Sequence record: NC_028957.1
DNA from: Escherichia phage vB_EcoM_VR26
DNA: 64,000 nucleotides
Strand: one strand, 5' to 3'
The number at the start of each line of letters is the position of its first letter. Within the stretch, counting starts at the first letter, position 1. The notes below the pieces were generated by a model. That model was not told the origin of the DNA and did no database searches. It saw only the letters and a list, made by a program, of their open reading frames with translations. Below, piece after piece: positions 2,982 to 64,000 of this stretch. Position numbers and translations under genes: made by a program.

Positions 2982-4820
2982 TTATAGCGTCGCATTCATC
3001 CAATCTTTACGTGGTTTTGATTCTTTACCGAAAAGCATTTCAAACAGGTCTTTCCAGTTTTCAGGTAATTGAACAACTTCGAATACCGGTTCGAGTAATA
3101 CTCGTTTGTACTCGGAATCTTCCAGAGAACCCAGCCCCTTGATATATCTGATGGTATGCTTCGGAAGTTTATCCTTAGCTTCTTCATAATCGGGAAGAGA
3201 ATAGAACCATTCTTGTTTATCTTTGAGCTGTGCAATAATAACAGGAGTTTTCACAAAGCGAATACGTCCTTCATGGAACAGCTCCGGCCAGTTACTGAAA
3301 AATGCCAATAACGATGGATAGATACTACCGACACCATCCACATCCGCATCTGTCATGATAGCGATATTTCGGTAATTCATATTCTCGGCTGGTTGTCCAA
3401 TCGTTAATCCAGTAATCGCACACACATCAAAGGCTTCTGCGTTTTTCATAACTTCAACAGCTTTCAGACCCCATGTGTTTTTGAACTTACCGCGCAACGG
3501 ATAAGCGCCTTGCAATTCACGGTCACGAACCTTGATAAACGGACCCGTTGCAGAATCCCCTTCGGTCAGGAACAAAGTCGTTTCCAGCTTGTCATTGCCC
3601 CATTCGTTGGCCTTGATATGTTTCTGTACCTTGGCCTTTGAAGCTTTCTTATTCGCCTTAGTCTCTGCTGCTTTCTCTGCAGCCAATTTACGAGCCAATG
3701 CAGCTTCAATAATGGGCATCAGAATAGCTTCTGATTTTAACAACGAACCCGCCAACTTTTTGCCATCAACCTGGATATGTGATTTAATTTCGCCAGCCGG
3801 AGAAGTCAATCGTTCCTTGGTCTGGGAATCAAATCGCATATTTTTCATATTGCGAATAAACATCAACAACGTAATACATTCTTTAACGCGTGCTTTGGTT
3901 ACTTCAATTTTATACTTGCGTTTAATTGCTGGGATTAATACATCACACATTTCATCCATAACACATTCAATATGGTGACCACCATTTTTTGTGTGGATGT
4001 TGTTGACGTAAGTCAGATGTCTAAATCCATCAGGTGACCGACCGAGTGCAATTGAGCAATTATCTTGTTCCTGGATAATGATTTCATCATCATATTGTTT
4101 AGCAAACTTTTTAAACTGACCTTGTACCTTTTTACCATTGAATTTGAATTCAATATCAGGATAAACAACAGCAAGAGTCTGCAGACGGTCAAGAGTAATA
4201 TCCAGATAAATTTTATCAAAACTGTTCATTTCAAAATGGCTAAAGTCTGGAATAAACTCAACCTTGGTGCCATTGGATTTGGTCGGTTTGGTTTTCCATG
4301 ATACATTATCGGCGTTATTTGAACAACTTACACGAAGCTCATTTTTACCGTCAGATGTGGTCCCCGTAAAAAGGATTGAAAAAATATTAGTAAGACTTGA
4401 ACCCACACCATTTTGGCCACCGGTCACACGTTCTTTGTCATCACCGAAATTCCCGCCCGCTTTGGTTTTCGTCCATGCCGCTACGGGCCCAGGTAATTCT
4501 TCACCTTCTGGTGTTACGACAACAGCTTGTGGAATACCGCGGCCATTATCTTCAACAGTAACTTTGCTATCAGTCAGAGAAATATCAACAGAAATTTTAT
4601 TTGCAAATTTGAAATTTGTACGTATGGCTTCATCGACCGAGTTGTCAATAATCTCATCAATCAGTTTTAATACACCCGCCACATAAGATACTTTAGTATA
4701 TTCACCAAATAAAAATCTTTCGTATTCTTCATATGAAACACTTCCTATGTACATTCCCGGACGTTTCAAACAATGGTCTTTATCTGAAAGCAGTTCAATT
4801 TTATTTTCAATCATAATCAA
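2982..4820 (-). CDS. 39: DNA topoisomerase II large subunit (GyrB-like ATPase + Toprim), uninterrupted 39/60 form
   Basis: 612 aa; GHKL motifs IDNSVDE and VEDNGRGIP; Toprim motif LTEGDSA; no gene-60-type interruption. Confidence 0.9.
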   Translation of the reverse strand: MIMIENKIELLSDKDHCLKRPGMYIGSVSYEEYERFLFGEYTKVSYVAGVLKLIDEIIDNSVDEAIRTNFKFANKISVDISLTDSKVTVEDNGRGIPQAVVVTPEGEELPGPVAAWTKTKAGGNFGDDKERVTGGQNGVGSSLTNIFSILFTGTTSDGKNELRVSCSNNADNVSWKTKPTKSNGTKVEFIPDFSHFEMNSFDKIYLDITLDRLQTLAVVYPDIEFKFNGKKVQGQFKKFAKQYDDEIIIQEQDNCSIALGRSPDGFRHLTYVNNIHTKNGGHHIECVMDEMCDVLIPAIKRKYKIEVTKARVKECITLLMFIRNMKNMRFDSQTKERLTSPAGEIKSHIQVDGKKLAGSLLKSEAILMPIIEAALARKLAAEKAAETKANKKASKAKVQKHIKANEWGNDKLETTLFLTEGDSATGPFIKVRDRELQGAYPLRGKFKNTWGLKAVEVMKNAEAFDVCAITGLTIGQPAENMNYRNIAIMTDADVDGVGSIYPSLLAFFSNWPELFHEGRIRFVKTPVIIAQLKDKQEWFYSLPDYEEAKDKLPKHTIRYIKGLGSLEDSEYKRVLLEPVFEVVQLPENWKDLFEMLFGKESKPRKDWMNATL

Positions 4821-5579
4821 TTATTCCTTACTTTGTTTCAAGTATTCTATCGCAGTTTCTAATGAAGCAATATTGTCTTTAAACATTCCTAGTCCTATGT
4901 TGCATTTTGAACATAAAATACCTCGGACTTTACCAGTCGAGTGACAATGGTCTACATTGAACCAAGTGCTTTTTGATAAAGAAGTCGAATTGTTTGTTAG
5001 TTTTATTTTACAAATTTCGCAGTATGGTGTATCCTCAATTAACTTCAGAACATCCCGTCTTTTCATCTTTATAGAATGACTGTATGATAAGTCCAGCAAT
5101 TTGGTATCCCTTGCCTTTTGACAACAAGAATCCGAACAATATTTTTGAGTCCTATTTGTTGCAGTATACTCAATAGCACACACAGGACAAATACGCTCTT
5201 CCTTGAATATTCCACCACCCTGGCATTTAACTGAACAAAATTCATGGTAACCGGTCGCGAATGTATGATAATTAACAGGCTTACCACACTTACACAGGAC
5301 TTTCCCTTTTATATCATGTAAAATACGATAACAGACCTCGTTATACGGATGTTGTTCTCTTTTACCTCCCTGACATTCCAGTGCTTCTGCTCTAAAGGCA
5401 TTTGCTTCCTCAGGATGTTTTTCCCAAAATTTCTTTGCAAATTCTAAATCATTTTTAAATAAATTTCCGTTTAGTCTATTCGGATTTTTAGTTAAAAGAT
5501 TTTCTTCAATAAATTGTTTTAAGTTCATGGAGGTATTATAAGTCACATATTTTAAAGCAAAAAGGCCCGAAGGCCTCAT
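4821..5579 (-). CDS. Cys-rich zinc-finger protein with C-terminal endonuclease VII-like nuclease motif
   Basis: C-terminal VDHCHSTGKVRGILCSKCNIGLG parallels gp49 motif DHDHELNGPKAGKVRGLLCNLCNG; several CxxC pairs; AT-rich; start ambiguous (ATGA-coupled ATG at 5579 inside hairpin, or ATG at 5528). Confidence 0.6.
   Translation of the reverse strand: MRPSGLFALKYVTYNTSMNLKQFIEENLLTKNPNRLNGNLFKNDLEFAKKFWEKHPEEANAFRAEALECQGGKREQHPYNEVCYRILHDIKGKVLCKCGKPVNYHTFATGYHEFCSVKCQGGGIFKEERICPVCAIEYTATNRTQKYCSDSCCQKARDTKLLDLSYSHSIKMKRRDVLKLIEDTPYCEICKIKLTNNSTSLSKSTWFNVDHCHSTGKVRGILCSKCNIGLGMFKDNIASLETAIEYLKQSKE
5556..5577 (-). terminator. rho-independent terminator-like hairpin (UUCG tetraloop)
   Basis: aggcc-cgaa-ggcct with adjacent A-run; overlaps stop of 5576..5836 and first codons of 4821..5579. 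Confidence 0.45.
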
Positions 5580-5836
5580 TCAAATCGGATGGTTGAATTC
5601 TTGAACAACAATCCAGAACAAACAGTTCCTTCAACTTTCTTACCAGTTGGACCCACTGCTATAAAACCAGTATGCTGGAAATCATCTTTGGAGCATCCAA
5701 ACCAGTTATATCCGGTGATTTGGATTTGCTCATTGCCGTTTGCATCTAATACACGAACGGCATTATCTGCGTCAGTACAACCAGCCAATGAAACAGCCAA
5801 AACCAGCGCGGCAATAGAACGATTAATATATTTCAT
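5576..5836 (-). CDS. small lipoprotein
   Basis: 86 aa; signal peptide with lipobox LAGC; stop overlaps next start (ATGA). Confidence 0.6.
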   Translation of the reverse strand: MKYINRSIAALVLAVSLAGCTDADNAVRVLDANGNEQIQITGYNWFGCSKDDFQHTGFIAVGPTGKKVEGTVCSGLLFKNSTIRFE

Positions 5837-6023
5837 ATTTCCTCATTTAAGCAGGTCGTAAAACCCGCCATTAACATGTTTAGGGGCCGAGACTAGCCGA
5901 ACAGCCAGCCGATGGCAATCAGGGCAAACATCATTATCTCTTTCAGAGATTTTCTTGATTTTTTCGTATTCTTTTGCGCAGTCTTTGGATTGACATTTGT
6001 AATCATAAAGTGGCATCTCTAAA

Positions 6024-40531: not shown

Positions 40532-40840
40532 TTAACGGTCACACCAATAACTACTTACTTCAAAATCAGGCTCACCGTCGTCCCAATACCAAGGACCAAC
40601 CGGATGCCAATCGCCATGCTTATCTTCTTCATATTCTTCAGATTCAAGCCCGACATATTGCCATTGGACTTCATAAGCAGTGCCACCAATTACAACCGTG
40701 TTTTCGCCGTACGGGTTAGCAACAGCAAAGTCAATACCTTCTTCTTTCGCCAGGGCTACCATGTATTCATAGAGTTTATATTCCAGGTCGTCTTCTGTAC
40801 CGTCACCTAGAAAAATGGTCTGTTCGTTTAATTCAATCAT
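40532..40840 (-). CDS. hypothetical acidic protein
   Basis: 102-aa ORF. Confidence 0.4.
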   Translation of the reverse strand: MIELNEQTIFLGDGTEDDLEYKLYEYMVALAKEEGIDFAVANPYGENTVVIGGTAYEVQWQYVGLESEEYEEDKHGDWHPVGPWYWDDGEPDFEVSSYWCDR

Positions 40841-60092: not shown

Positions 60093-60743
60093 TTATTTTT
60101 GTCTATTATAATATTTCAATTCAGCGGCGCGACGTCTTTCCATTGCTTCGTCACGAGAATCACCATAGTAAAGTTGGATTTCTTTATGATTAACAGTAAT
60201 ATATGATATCCATTTACCTCTGTCTTTTCTAAACTTGACACCTGTAATTGGACCAGGTGAATCTTTTCGGGTATCCTGGTCAAATGACTGTATTGATGAT
60301 GAAGCCCATTCGCAAGTTTCTTTACTGTATAGCTTACATGAATTTATCCGATTAATGCTTGTACCTGCTGGACGAATACCCATATCTTCAACAAAATTCA
60401 AATAACCAGTTTTTCCCTTTGGTAGCCACCTATCACATATTTGTACACCAGCGCCACCATACTGCTTCCAACGATGATGGTTAGGATTTGTACACCTTTC
60501 AATCATGGCAGCATACGATGAATATGTAGGTTTGTCAGAAATAAATGAATAATGATATTTCTGACAGCCGCATGATTTGGTTTTACCTGATTTTATACGA
60601 GCGGCGGCTGTGACAAACTCTTTACCACAATGACAAATACAATTCCATTTAGTAGAAACTCCAGCGGTTTTATATGCTACCGAAACAAATTTGATTCCAT
60701 TAATAATTTTACCAGTCAAATCTTCTAATGGTCTTCCCATCAT
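60093..60743 (-). CDS. zinc-finger/AP2-like DNA-binding protein (homing-endonuclease-like)
   Basis: 216 aa; N-terminal CICHCG...CGC; central NPNHHRWKQYGGAGVQICDRW; C-terminal AP2-like segment. Confidence 0.45.
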   Translation of the reverse strand: MMGRPLEDLTGKIINGIKFVSVAYKTAGVSTKWNCICHCGKEFVTAAARIKSGKTKSCGCQKYHYSFISDKPTYSSYAAMIERCTNPNHHRWKQYGGAGVQICDRWLPKGKTGYLNFVEDMGIRPAGTSINRINSCKLYSKETCEWASSSIQSFDQDTRKDSPGPITGVKFRKDRGKWISYITVNHKEIQLYYGDSRDEAMERRRAAELKYYNRQK

Positions 60744-61705
60744 TCATCCTTTTTGAATGGTTTAATTAAATGCTGGTTAGCCTTAAAACGTTTAATATAA
60801 TCGTCATGACCTAAAGCATTATACATACTTATAATTTTACCATAATTTTCATATGCGAAGGTGCGGAACCATCCAGAAGTAATGGAGGTGCAGACTTTTT
60901 CCAGAGCCATATGGAAGCTATGGCTTGCAGGGATAATAAAATCATTAGGAACCTGTGAACGCTCCAGAGCGAGTACACATGCTTCTTCATAAACCCCTGC
61001 CAGTTTAATAACATCAGGGAGTGCTTCAAATTTTTCGCGTGAGGTCATGACTTCTGAATCATCCTTCATATAGAACTTATATGCGGGCTTATCAGCAAGC
61101 GCCACGGCCTCGTGGATGGAGTCATGGTCAAGGGTATAGATTGTATCATTAAAGAAAGTTTTCTTGCCCACGTCTAGTTTAGGGTGGCTATATGACAGTG
61201 TTTCTGCCTGGCGTTGTTGCATAATTTTCTGCAGTTCATCATTAAGAACAACACCCTTATTGCGAAGGTAATTAATATGACTCATGGTCTTCAGGAAGAA
61301 TGGATTGTTCTTCAGGTAACGATGAGATAATTTAATTGCCAGACAAATATCAGGAGTCGCCCAGTAAAAACCTGTAAGACGGTCCTTTTTAATATGATTT
61401 TCAGCATATTTCAGGAGACGATAACTTGAGGTGAAATCTTCGTCTTGAAGCTCGCCAGTAATTTCTCGTACGTTGGTCAGGGCACGGACAATATAAGCTT
61501 CAAAATAGGTTTCTTTGCCATTGTACATACATTTAAAAGCTTGGACATCAGGGTTATCCACAGGAACATGAGCACCGAACATACGTGCTTTAAAGTGGTT
61601 CCATGAGCCTTGGTCGGCAATGAAATCCCAATCAGAGTTTTCAATTTTCTGACTTTCAATCAGACCAGCGTTATGTAATGCACGAGAACCAATAACTAAC
61701 ATCAT
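60740..61705 (-). CDS. hypothetical protein
   Basis: 321-aa ORF; no recognised motif. Confidence 0.45.
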   Translation of the reverse strand: MMLVIGSRALHNAGLIESQKIENSDWDFIADQGSWNHFKARMFGAHVPVDNPDVQAFKCMYNGKETYFEAYIVRALTNVREITGELQDEDFTSSYRLLKYAENHIKKDRLTGFYWATPDICLAIKLSHRYLKNNPFFLKTMSHINYLRNKGVVLNDELQKIMQQRQAETLSYSHPKLDVGKKTFFNDTIYTLDHDSIHEAVALADKPAYKFYMKDDSEVMTSREKFEALPDVIKLAGVYEEACVLALERSQVPNDFIIPASHSFHMALEKVCTSITSGWFRTFAYENYGKIISMYNALGHDDYIKRFKANQHLIKPFKKDE

Positions 61706-61989
61706 AATATTTTCCTCATTAGTAAAGACGAGTTACTTCATATTTTCCAAGTGCCGATTTTTTCGCTTCAATTCGTGAGGCAGCAAGATTGGCGGCCTCT
61801 AGTGAAGAAAATTGAACCACTTGAGAAGTATTCTGTCTTACTCCACCTTGCGGGTGAGTGACAAAAACAATAAGAACATTATACATAATATTTTCCTCAT
61901 TAGTTGACGAGATAATGATACTACGTTTCTTTAGGCTTGTACACTAAATTTCTGCACATAAGTCCTCCTATCACATCCTTGTGATAATT

Positions 61990-62223
61990 TTAGCAGCTAC
62001 TCGGATACCAGATTTTACCATCGGCACGAGCAACGAAGGTACGACCAGCTTCTTCACCATAACAAGAGCTGTTCAACCAGTCTTCAAGACGGACTTCGCC
62101 GTCATAATCATCAAGCTCAACACCAAAATCTTGAGCAGAAGCCATATCTTTTACTTTCTTATACAGTGCAGCCAGTTCAAGGGCGGCTTTTTCTAATTCA
62201 GCATGTTCAACAGCAGTAGTCAT
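61990..62223 (-). CDS. small protein of the C-terminal SS-C paralog family (copy 5)
   Basis: 77 aa ending ...KIWYPSSC; GGTGA SD. Confidence 0.55.
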   Translation of the reverse strand: MTTAVEHAELEKAALELAALYKKVKDMASAQDFGVELDDYDGEVRLEDWLNSSCYGEEAGRTFVARADGKIWYPSSC

Positions 62224-62232
62224 TTTATCACC

Positions 62233-62460
62233 TTAGCAAGACATAGAGGAGTTAAACCAGAAACCTTTACCATCTGGGATACCGTAATCACCACGAATCC
62301 AGTCATACTCTTCGTATTCTGGACAACCCGCGGGAATATATCGTTGAAGACTGTCAGCATATACATGAAAGTATTCACCAGTTTTATCGGCCAGTTGTTC
62401 ACCTTCACAGATTAGTGCACGGATTTGGTCTTCAATTTCTTTAACAGTTTTAGCAGTCAT
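62233..62460 (-). CDS. small protein of the C-terminal SS-C paralog family (copy 4)
   Basis: 75 aa ending ...GFWFNSSMSC. Confidence 0.55.
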   Translation of the reverse strand: MTAKTVKEIEDQIRALICEGEQLADKTGEYFHVYADSLQRYIPAGCPEYEEYDWIRGDYGIPDGKGFWFNSSMSC

Positions 62461-62469
62461 TTTATTTCC

Positions 62470-62667
62470 TTAGCATTCGTAAGAGGAGGACACCCAAGAG
62501 GTACCACTAATAGTAATACAGCCATTATAAAGCGTGATATGTCGTTCTAGGTCACGCTGACCATCAATATAGATATCAGCTTCTTCACGTTCTTCTTTAC
62601 AAATCTGGATAACGTTTTCAATAGCTGCCGCGGCAGTACGGATTGCACAATCTAATTCACGAGACAT
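62470..62667 (-). CDS. small protein of the C-terminal SS-C paralog family (copy 3)
   Basis: 65 aa ending ...SWVSSSYEC; GGAAA SD. Confidence 0.55.
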   Translation of the reverse strand: MSRELDCAIRTAAAAIENVIQICKEEREEADIYIDGQRDLERHITLYNGCITISGTSWVSSSYEC

Positions 62668-62676
62668 AATAGTTCC

Positions 62677-62958
62677 TTAACATTCAGAAGAGGAGGACAC
62701 CCAACCGCCTTTTTCCAGGCTGGTAGTGTAATCATGTTGGTTTACAATAGCCCATTCAGGATGACCATGTTCTTCCCAATGAGCAAGGTCAGCTTTCAGG
62801 GCGCCAGGAGAATAATAGTCACCGCCCATACCGCGAGCAGGGTATATATTAAAATGAGTCTCATATTTGTCTGCAATTTCCTCGGCACGACGAATAGCTT
62901 TATGGATGTCATTTACTGCGTTAGCCAGTTCTTTATTTTTACGGTAATCATTCATCAT
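62677..62958 (-). CDS. small protein of the C-terminal SS-C paralog family (copy 2)
   Basis: 93 aa ending ...GGWVSSSSEC. Confidence 0.55.
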   Translation of the reverse strand: MMNDYRKNKELANAVNDIHKAIRRAEEIADKYETHFNIYPARGMGGDYYSPGALKADLAHWEEHGHPEWAIVNQHDYTTSLEKGGWVSSSSEC

Positions 62959-62967
62959 AGCGTTTCC

Positions 62968-63258
62968 TTAGCACATTGCCGAAGAGGAGACCCAAGCACC
63001 AACTGTAACGACACCGTTTTCAACTTCACCGCCGCTGTTTTCAATTTCATCTTTAAACCACTGGGAGCATTCATAACCGACAGGATAATATGTACGGCCC
63101 GAACCATAATCACCGGTACCAAATTGGATACCATATTCATCTGCGATTTCTTCACAGTGTTTTTCAATTTCAGAGGTCTTATTTAGAAGAGAATAGATAG
63201 CTTTTTCTGCAGATTTCTCATCATAATACTTGGGGATAGCAATTTCAATTTTATTCAT
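62968..63258 (-). CDS. small protein of the C-terminal SS-C paralog family (copy 1)
   Basis: 96 aa ending ...GAWVSSSAMC; start overlaps upstream stop (ATGA). Confidence 0.55.
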   Translation of the reverse strand: MNKIEIAIPKYYDEKSAEKAIYSLLNKTSEIEKHCEEIADEYGIQFGTGDYGSGRTYYPVGYECSQWFKDEIENSGGEVENGVVTVGAWVSSSAMC

Positions 63259-63608
63259 GATTTACATTCCTTAATAAAGGTTTCAAGGTCATTACGTTTT
63301 GTTTTGTCTAGGAACTTATTATACTCAGCCATTGCTGAAGCGTATCTCTTCCGACTAGGAGCATTCACGGCATTTGTGTGGCAAATATCATACACAACAG
63401 GGATAAAATAAGACACAACAGCCGGAGCGATTATCATAAAGAAACCCATCTCAATGGGCATCACTCCCTCGATTGCAGCCATAACCGTGGTCATTACCAG
63501 ACCAACCAAGCCGCCAAGCATGGCGGTGACAATCCCTAATAATAAATTGGCACCAATATCATATTCAGCCAATTGATAAACATGTGATGCAAGACTAGGC
63601 CGTTCCAT
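63255..63608 (-). CDS. two-pass membrane protein with C-terminal FIKECKS tail
   Basis: ATG at 63606-63608 (MERPSLASH) with AAGGAGG SD; two hydrophobic segments. Confidence 0.5.
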   Translation of the reverse strand: MERPSLASHVYQLAEYDIGANLLLGIVTAMLGGLVGLVMTTVMAAIEGVMPIEMGFFMIIAPAVVSYFIPVVYDICHTNAVNAPSRKRYASAMAEYNKFLDKTKRNDLETFIKECKS

Positions 63609-63978
63609 TACGAACCTCCTTAATAAATTCTTCGGCACATTTAATTTTGTGCTCTTCTTGCAGGGAAACACATTTTTGTTCCCACTCTTTAACTCGTCCA
63701 CGATATCCTTTATTCATATGATTTTGATGCCACACGTTTATCAATAACATGCTCAGGACTGTAATAAAAGGTGCTGCAATTATTAGTGACCAGGCGACTC
63801 CAACACTAATGATATTCATATCCCCACAAAGCACCATCATTATAACCCCAACGATGCACATGGACAGAGCTCCAAACGCAGGCATAAGGTCTTTATCAAT
63901 CTTGTCTGCATATACAAATTTTTCTGGTTTACTTGGCAGATATAGCGTTCGCATTTTGAACCTCTTTAGCGTATTCAC
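63595..63978 (-). CDS. two-pass membrane protein with C-terminal FIKEV tail (paralog)
   Basis: 127-aa ORF; start near window edge uncertain; same architecture as 63255..63608. Confidence 0.45.
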   Translation of the reverse strand: MNTLKRFKMRTLYLPSKPEKFVYADKIDKDLMPAFGALSMCIVGVIMMVLCGDMNIISVGVAWSLIIAAPFITVLSMLLINVWHQNHMNKGYRGRVKEWEQKCVSLQEEHKIKCAEEFIKEVRNGTA

Positions 63979-64000
63979 GACATTCAGTAATAAAACGATT

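Follow-up and report, generated by a model that had tools for sequence, protein, structure and literature searches.

The T4-like Escherichia phage vB_EcoM_VR26 (NC_028957.1) carries an array of five consecutive small genes, here called c1 to c5, on the minus strand of the 64,000-nucleotide stretch that was analysed and that we refer to as the window. Their coordinates, sizes in amino acids (aa), C-terminal residues and matches to a PHROG family and to the hidden Markov model (HMM) of the family described below are as follows; dN/dS is the ratio of nonsynonymous to synonymous substitution rates.

62968-63258, minus: c1, 96 aa, ends GAWVSSSAMC; PHROG 899 E 6.4e-23; family HMM E 1.5e-26; dN/dS 0.10-0.25
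62677-62958, minus: c2, 93 aa, ends GGWVSSSSEC; PHROG 899 E 2.9e-20; family HMM E 2.2e-25
62470-62667, minus: c3, 65 aa, ends GTSWVSSSYEC; PHROG 4882 E 9.7e-37; family HMM E 8.9e-07; dN/dS 0.07-0.14
62233-62460, minus: c4, 75 aa, ends GFWFNSSMSC (GKGFWFNSSMSC); PHROG 899 E 3.5e-15; family HMM E 1.4e-19
61990-62223, minus: c5, 77 aa, ends GKIWYPSSC; PHROG 899 E 8.6e-10; family HMM E 1.9e-03

An initial annotation of this DNA had described five small genes, each preceded by its own Shine-Dalgarno sequence, and the open reading frame (ORF) calls, the family HMM and the dN/dS values all agreed with it. It had given the spacing as 9 to 10 nt; the genes are indeed that close, all four intergenic spacers measuring exactly 9 nt, and the strand had to be corrected to minus. 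Each spacer opens with GGA or GGT right after the TAA stop codon, and the sequence TAAGGA or TAAGGT, in which the start of the spacer is joined to the stop, is the Shine-Dalgarno sequence of the array genes. The start codon of c1 overlaps the stop codon of the upstream e.3-like membrane-protein gene (tcATGAat), as had also been reported. A promoter and terminator scan of positions 60600-64000 gave a signal no higher than the shuffled expectation. From c1 to c5 the products begin with MNKIEIAIPK, MMNDYRKNKE, MSRELDCAIR, MTAKTVKEIE and MTTAVEHAEL. T4 internal head proteins start with a MKTYQEFIAE-like capsid-targeting sequence with a gp21 cleavage site; none of the five N-termini has a capsid-targeting sequence, and this identity was rejected.

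The five products share their C-terminus. In MAFFT alignments of c1-c5 and their relatives the Trp, the Ser-Ser pair and the terminal Cys were invariant, and the conserved W...SS...Cys motif of the initial annotation thus stood up to proper alignment. Among the 530 window ORFs of at least 35 aa, an ending of the form W-x(1-2)-SS-x(0-3)-C was found in five, namely c1-c5, and among 1027 T4 ORFs in none; the shared ending exceeds chance. The further statement that the motif is kept at the nucleotide level held in full for c2 and c3 alone (TGGGTGTCCTCCTCT). The fifth copy had been said to share only the Trp and the Ser-Ser-Cys. Its ending is as described, and the word "only" had to be dropped, since c5 holds the motif twice, internally as DWLNSSC (in DWLNSSCYGEE) and terminally as IWYPSSC. 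Because the motif is present twice, we consider c5 a true, if divergent, member of the family rather than a merely loosely similar protein. The copy nearest to the family consensus is c2 (GMGGDYYSP), which was chosen for modelling, and c3 is a short member that lacks the variable insert of the others.

We then compared the window copies with their orthologues in seven related phages by the Nei-Gojobori method. The dN/dS values ranged from 0.07 to 0.34 across all five copies and were similar for neighbouring genes; with orthologues in seven phages, these values indicate that c1-c5 are real coding genes. The order of the five genes is preserved in most related genomes (one relative, L008 in our numbering of loci, lacks c3). 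In alignment the paralogues are only 22-31% identical to c1, and the duplications are therefore old. The five genes are thus real, ancient paralogues under purifying selection, not DIVERSIFYING. The initial annotation had likened the array to diversifying effector or inhibitor families. This view found no support, as each copy has conserved orthologues and the gene order is kept, and diversifying selection on the array was rejected on the dN/dS values.

The family to which c1-c5 belong is catalogued but has no described function. Neither the five proteins nor 128 aligned relatives gave a significant match in Pfam, NCBIfam or PADLOC. The PHROGs database places c1, c2, c4 and c5 in PHROG 899 and c3 in PHROG 4882, both labelled 'unknown function', and 124 of the 128 relatives match the former and four the latter. 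A tblastn search with c2 matched 309 phage records, from phages of Escherichia, Klebsiella, Citrobacter, Enterobacter and, more weakly, Acinetobacter. When a 32-sequence profile was run with HMMER against 1.84 billion cluster representatives (E<=1e-3), 101 clusters matched, one of them a spurious repeat protein; the remaining matches are 65-138 aa long, and the alignment reaches the C-terminus in nearly all. The last residue is Cys in 88 of 98 family members, most of the others being one residue longer. The proteins are acidic, with a median isoelectric point (pI) of 4.46 (4.4-5.6 for the window copies), and their consensus reads xxxAxxxIxxxxxxxxxxxEAExIADxxGxxFxxxxxYGxGxTYxPxxxxxxxWxxxxxxYxxxxxxxGxWxSSSxxC. 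In 20 members the tail holds two or three copies of the W-x-S-S unit, as in WESSSEGWESSSEGWVSSSSQC. This family of small acidic proteins is apparently restricted to phages. The initial annotation had not recognised it as a described family, and we likewise found no characterised family, solved-structure analogue or paper on the identifiers. Literature searches under DUF7275 and DUF7277, the PHROG identifiers and RB69ORF134c-139c, of which RB69ORF139c is the sole family member identified, gave nothing on the family or on the linkage described below. A comparative paper on jumbo phages mentions RlaP and CCA enzymes and makes no mention of the module of small proteins and DUF7275 (PMC7824862).

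Two other groups of proteins touch on this family. A long subtype of 150-175 aa carries an additional domain at the N-terminus, its C-terminus reading W-[DA]-SS-[STR]-C or WDSSSMYC; its members include the following.

L045, 5467-5985: long-subtype member
L059, 5146-5667: long-subtype member
L062, 4334-4801: long-subtype member
L086, 1718-2173: long-subtype member

The existence of this subtype is probably the reason why the PHROG 899 profile has 221 positions and the window copies match only positions 133-221. The T4 49.3-like protein of the window (40532-40840, minus) and T4 gene 49.3 itself (L099, 47823-48131) gave weak family-HMM matches (E 0.014 and 0.046) that run through a C-terminal W..W......EVSS.WC.. 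stretch, with no motif at the end; this resemblance is probably due to chance.

The conserved partner of the array was not picked up by the initial annotation. It is the gene downstream, which codes for a protein with DUF7277 and DUF7275 domains, a putative enzyme called the enzyme hereafter. One further ORF lies between them.

60740-61705, minus: DUF7277 + DUF7275 protein, 321 aa, downstream of the array; Pfam E 3.9e-74 and 3.6e-26
61719-61886, minus: 55-aa ORF between the array and the enzyme gene; PHROG 20278

The linkage was first seen in two distant metagenomic relatives of the small genes that adjoin a DUF7277 + DUF7275 gene, one on a T4-like contig and one on a non-T4 contig with a Prim-Pol primase. 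We looked at it from the enzyme side, in 80 viral loci with 6-kb flanks (enzymes 37-100% identical) drawn from T4-like phages, jumbo phages of 350-390 kb and contigs of 30-150 kb. At E<=1e-3 the family HMM picked up 155 same-strand genes upstream of the enzyme and 2 downstream, the opposite strand giving none, and 69 of the 77 eligible loci held small-family genes. With relaxed criteria that combined the HMM and the motif, the counts were 185 same-strand upstream, 3 downstream and 0 opposite, with one to five copies per locus. Eight loci had scored empty: two have too little DNA upstream, in five the ORF immediately upstream is divergent and ends W-x-SS-x-C, and one (L028) has no such ORF. At least one small-family gene thus stands upstream in 77 of the 78 loci having sufficient upstream DNA, and the gap between the last small gene and the enzyme start ranges from 0 to 1371 nt (median about 480). 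The exception, L028, is a 165.5-kb T4-like genome (IMG/VR 650627040, positions 3000-6000) whose closest relatives, L027, L029, L032 and L033, have two small-family genes each; it appears to be a natural loss of the small genes, possibly an instructive one.

Other approaches gave the same picture. When all ORFs of 45 non-redundant loci were clustered, the small family was the only one travelling with the enzyme, in 30 of the 45 loci by BLAST clustering alone, every other family reaching at most seven. Conversely, five of five metagenomic contigs found through the small proteins had DUF7275 just downstream, two of them with four small genes in a row, and the c5 subtype was also found upstream of DUF7275 in L030, L064 and L085. 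The same arrangement occurs in the rV5-like phage ESCO13, Pseudomonas phage Kremar and Acinetobacter phage Kimel. T4 has neither a small-family gene nor a DUF7275 gene; its e.2 abuts e.3 precisely where the block of the window is inserted. The enzyme is present in 730 phage records, and a survey covering 185,579 bacterial and archaeal species, one genome each, returned just six loci, all on contigs of metagenome-assembled genomes (MAGs), so that the module appears to be phage-borne rather than carried on bacterial chromosomes. Four of the six (L093, weakly with E 0.0057, L094, L096 and L097) also carry upstream small-family genes, and the other two have short upstream flanks. The 55-aa ORF has an orthologue in just two of seven close relatives, is absent from the co-occurring families and lies outside the conserved module. 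Altogether, these data show a same-strand module, small genes followed by the DUF7277/DUF7275 gene, that spans T4-like, rV5-like, jumbo and other phages. It is absent from the literature found and is apparently undescribed.

The alignment of 45 non-redundant enzyme homologues gave an indication of its type. Residues G6, S7, D25 and D27, in the context V-I-G-S-R-A-L ... S-D-W-D-F-I, are invariant in 45 of 45 and fit the signature hG[GS]-x(9-20)-Dh[DE]h of Pol-beta-type nucleotidyltransferases. Also invariant are K125, H128, K139, R165, H174, D193, H194, D195, H198, E240, E241, E248 and R249, as is the block K270-V-C272-T-S-I-T-S-G-W-F-R281, in which Cys272 lies within KVCTSITSGWFR. Three matches to nucleotidyltransferase families were below threshold (NTP_transf_5, E 0.026; DUF6036, E 0.053; PADLOC AbiEii, E 0.0029). 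Searches of the PDB by phmmer and by profile found no match, NCBIfam gave nothing meaningful, and hhalign against T4 NrdC.11, an RlaP nucleotidyltransferase, returned a probability of 0.1. An Acinetobacter-phage homologue is named 'putative nucleotidyltransferase' in two GenBank records. We take the enzyme to be a probable Pol-beta-type nucleotidyltransferase, solely on the invariant G-S...D-x-D pattern.

Cys272 is invariant across the 45 partner-linked enzymes. A divergent clade of enzymes, comprising 13 loci from KVP40-like Vibrio phages, Gordonia phages and others, has Ile in its place, in the motif R/K-T-I-T-S-L-T-K, and retains K125, H128, K139, H194, D195, H198, E240, E241, E248 and R249. 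None of these 13 loci has a small-family gene within 4 kb. As Cys272 and the Cys-ended partners are present or absent together, this pattern hints at thiol-thiol chemistry between them, for which a shared metal, a mixed disulfide or a relay through a persulfide or thioester could be considered.

These findings bear on the possibility that the small proteins are independent effectors, each binding or inhibiting a different host target through its C-terminal Cys, with the DUF7275 neighbourhood being no more than a shared island of accessory genes. The proteins are small, acidic, variable in body and multi-copy, as such effectors could be, and their genes belong to a plastic part, early or accessory, of the T4-like genomes, the block sitting as an insertion between e.3 and e.2 when compared with T4. 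However, the adjacency to the enzyme gene persists in unrelated genomes that share nothing else nearby, and its polarity is strict (185 upstream, 3 downstream, 0 opposite). T4 lacks both genes at once, and the partners are missing exactly in the enzyme clade that has no Cys272. Selection on the small genes is purifying, with no sign of diversification. We regard independent effectors as distinctly improbable.

To see where the conserved end lies in the protein, we modelled c2 with AlphaFold2 (AF2). On a shallow 32-sequence alignment the prediction was uninformative, with a per-residue confidence (pLDDT) of 59 and a tail below 50; it was superseded by a model built on the 128-sequence alignment, with a pLDDT of 93.5 and a predicted template modelling score (pTM) of 0.81. 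In this model c2 consists of a helix (residues 9-32), a hairpin (35-41/44-49), inserted helices, a strand at 84-88 (G-G-W-V-S, W86 inside) and a short terminal turn (S-S-S-E), and confidence is reduced at the last three residues only. For the family as a whole the predicted fold comprises a long N-terminal helix (..EAExIADxxG), a beta-hairpin (F.F..YGMGGtYyP), a variable and often acidic insert, a third strand, and a short terminal turn that closes it (G.W.SSSxxC-COOH). The conserved motif tail is therefore not, according to the model, a free disordered appendage: with G-G-W-V-S as strand three of the sheet, its Trp and first Ser would belong to the fold, and Ser-Ser-x-x-Cys is the predicted exposed end. 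Foldseek searches with the model gave a best E of 3.7 against the PDB and nothing beyond uncharacterised family members in BFVD, and a PDB sequence and profile search with the family alignment gave a best E of 0.16. The predicted fold has no structural match outside the family, i.e. it is a new fold as modelled. Carriers of the ubiquitin-like or ThiS-MoaD kind were rejected on the same model, whose helix and three-stranded sheet gave no beta-grasp match, and on the Cys ending, which is not Gly-Gly.

The model also bears on a reading of the small proteins as precursors of ribosomally synthesised and post-translationally modified peptides (RiPPs), in which the S-x-x-Cys-COOH end would be turned into a lanthionine-type or aminovinyl-cysteine (AviCys)-type ring or a thiolactone and the peptide released. 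Epidermin, a lanthipeptide/AviCys precursor, has Ser-x-x-Cys at its extreme C-terminus; the S(-3)-x-x-C(0) end of c1-c4 is spaced as its Ser19...Cys22, and several precursor-like paralogues adjoin an enzyme gene. The motif nevertheless lies within a confidently folded domain, and conservation covers this whole domain rather than a leader sequence. In the 45 non-redundant loci we found no co-occurring dehydratase, cyclase, LanD-type flavoprotein or decarboxylase, protease or exporter family. The c5-type end is SSC with no spacer, the Cys is followed by a further residue in about 10% of members, and neither signal nor export features are present in the small proteins. RiPP precursors were therefore rejected, their probability being very low in our judgement.

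What do the small proteins do? It is likely that they are dedicated partners of the DUF7277/DUF7275 enzyme in some capacity, be it substrate, carrier, adaptor or regulator. We propose that the enzyme would act on them, as substrates, carriers or adaptors, at their invariant Ser-Ser/terminal-Cys end. Two chemistries are candidates: a nucleotidyl group may be transferred to the hydroxyl of the invariant Ser, or the terminal Cys may take part in a thiol relay with Cys272 of the enzyme. The variable insert would then set the next action of each copy. This more specific role, as substrate, carrier or adaptor, we hold to be a little short of an even prospect. We favour it over that of an inhibitor because several conserved paralogues per enzyme are the rule, because these paralogues differ in the insert while sharing the EAExIAD helix, the YGMGG hairpin and the W-SS-Cys end, because the W-x-S-S unit is repeatable, like a recognition or acceptor site, and because bacteria, the home of toxin-antitoxin pairs, lack the module. 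Modification or thiol chemistry at the Ser-Ser/Cys end, with DUF7277/DUF7275 as the candidate enzyme, is plausible. The fullest version is an undescribed phage-specific protein-modification or thiol-relay system, in which a Pol-beta-type transferase with a catalytic Cys would charge or modify carriers at Ser-Ser-x-x-Cys and the inserts would direct the modification to host or phage targets; nucleotidylation, formation of a persulfide or thioester, and a mixed disulfide are all conceivable as the modification. We offer this version tentatively and think it unlikely.

Several points weigh against the proposal. About 10% of the members have one residue after the Cys, which implies that a free Cys alpha-carboxylate is not strictly needed, and W-V-S is a core beta-strand, so that conservation of the motif is partly structural. 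The nucleotidyltransferase assignment depends on a short motif, and neither a characterised family nor a solved structure matched significantly. The correlation between Cys272 and the partners may stem from a single evolutionary split, and Limnohabitans phage DC31 keeps Cys272 and has no partner within 3.5 kb. More generally, adjacency speaks for functional coupling and is silent on its direction or chemistry.

A regulator role leads to a different scheme, that of a pair resembling toxin and antitoxin: DUF7275 would be a potentially toxic nucleotidyltransferase acting, for instance, on tRNA or other host RNA, like MenT or AbiEii, with the acidic products of the small upstream genes as its neutralisers or regulators. 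The gene order, in which one or more small ORFs precede a same-strand gene for a nucleotidyltransferase-like protein of about 300 aa, is that of MenAT, and the PADLOC AbiEii match given above came from one of the 45 enzymes. That score is at the noise level, a plainly spurious Cas8b match having E 0.0053 in the same table, and Pfam AbiEii/DUF1814 matched none of the 45 at E<=1. The near-absence of the module from bacteria, with only the six MAG loci, also argues against it, and two to five conserved paralogues per enzyme are unlike the needs of a one-to-one neutraliser. This scheme seems to us unlikely.

Whichever role proves right, the module is found in hundreds of large virulent phages (T4-like, rV5-like and jumbo) of Escherichia, Klebsiella, Acinetobacter, Aeromonas and Pseudomonas, some belonging to groups used for therapy, and both of its components are annotated only as 'hypothetical'. 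Their strict pairing joins two uncharacterised families in a single system that is open to test. A new kind of phage-encoded protein chemistry would be at hand if the small proteins are carriers or adaptors that undergo covalent modification; if they regulate a toxic transferase, the module would be a phage-borne counterpart of MenT/AbiE-type systems.

The surroundings of the module in the window are those of a Gaprivervirus-type T4-like phage: positions 61700-64000 are 97-98% identical to vB_EcoM_VR20 and VR7, and the IMG/VR genome L005 encodes an enzyme 100% identical to that of the window. Upstream of c1 lies the following gene.

63255-63608, minus: e.3-like membrane-protein gene, upstream of c1; PHROG 2330; annotated e.3 (354 nt) in VR7

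Its longest ORF begins at a GTG (63701) and shares about 100 nt with the e.4-like ORF (region 63255-63978, minus). The start is probably the ATG at 63608, because the PHROG 2330 match begins at residue 32 and the VR7 gene is 354 nt long. The e.3-like gene lies outside the conserved module and is its neighbour only in T4-like phages. The initial annotation had suggested modelling complexes of the small proteins with the upstream membrane proteins; outside T4-like synteny a link between them has no support, and a complex with the e.3/e.4 proteins was rejected since that neighbourhood is not conserved beyond the T4-like phages.

On the other side, a 6-bp hairpin (ATCACA-AGGA-TGTGAT, 61970-61985, minus) stands directly 3' of the c5 stop. 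Next come a strong AGGAGG and a mini-ORF of 12 codons (MCRNLVYKPKET*, 61921-61959, minus), within the 100-nt gap before the 55-aa ORF. In SP18-type relatives the gap after c5 is about 0.75 kb and holds three extra genes. Beyond the enzyme gene, whose stop it overlaps, a 216-aa ORF (60093-60743, minus) has a Cys-rich N-terminus (CICHCGK...CGC) and no Pfam match at E<=0.01. It is also present in VR7, where it is noted as similar to Pseudomonas phage D3 ORF78, and SP18 has a 75-aa gene instead; it looks like a mobile or homing-type insertion. Genes for nicotinamide adenine dinucleotide (NAD) salvage and nucleotide sugars (NAMPT/NAPRT, phosphoribosyl pyrophosphate (PRPP) synthetase, Nudix NudE) recur near the module or the partner-less enzyme clade at several unrelated loci, in about 13% of the non-redundant loci only. 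Examples are listed here.

L090, 743-2158: NAD-salvage/nucleotide-sugar genes
L104, 1-2896: NAD-salvage/nucleotide-sugar genes
Aeromonas-phage loci, e.g. L035, 444-1925: NAD-salvage/nucleotide-sugar genes
Neighbourhood of the module in the window: NudE homologue according to the VR7 annotation

Several known systems resemble the module in part. In GlnD-PII, MntA-HepT, and CitX/MdcG with the acyl carrier proteins of citrate lyase or malonate decarboxylase, a Pol-beta-type transferase modifies a small partner of about 70-110 aa, an invariant hydroxyl (Tyr or Ser) is the acceptor, and the carriers are small and acidic. The module resembles these pairs in its putative Pol-beta-type transferase and small acidic partner, the modification being hypothetical here. 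The folds and families of those partners gave no match in c1-c5, with no HEPN domain and no carrier structural match, and no genes for prosthetic-group synthesis co-occurred in the 45 non-redundant loci. SoxY (GGCGG-COOH) and DsrC/TusE (penultimate Cys) are carriers with a C-terminal 'swinging-arm' cysteine that work with a partner enzyme thiol. Like them, the small proteins have a thiol at or near the C-terminus, and this terminal Cys shows co-variation with the enzyme residue Cys272; unlike them, the module has no sulfur-metabolism context and its partner is nucleotidyltransferase-like. Lanthipeptide/AviCys precursors likewise have a Ser-x-x-Cys end and several paralogous small genes beside an enzyme gene, but the small proteins form a predicted folded domain of 65-96 aa with no separate leader and core, and no families of biosynthetic enzymes lie nearby.

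The MenA/MenT and AbiEi/AbiEii (DUF1814) systems share with the module a small gene directly upstream of one for a protein of about 300 aa, and MenT1, for example, is paired with a 68-aa upstream antitoxin (PMC7450476). MenT and AbiEii also have, like the DUF7275 enzyme, an N-terminal Pol-beta-type G-[GS]...D-x-D pattern and a helical C-terminal domain with further conserved K, R and D residues. In contrast to these systems, the module is carried by phages rather than bacteria and has up to five paralogous small genes per locus. Its small proteins have an invariant W-SS-Cys end that is unknown in MenA and AbiEi, and its enzyme has an invariant Cys and no significant DUF1814/AbiEii profile match. 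By analogy, then, the layout of the module, small upstream genes followed by the gene for a putative Pol-beta-type nucleotidyltransferase, is most like that of MenA/MenT and AbiE.

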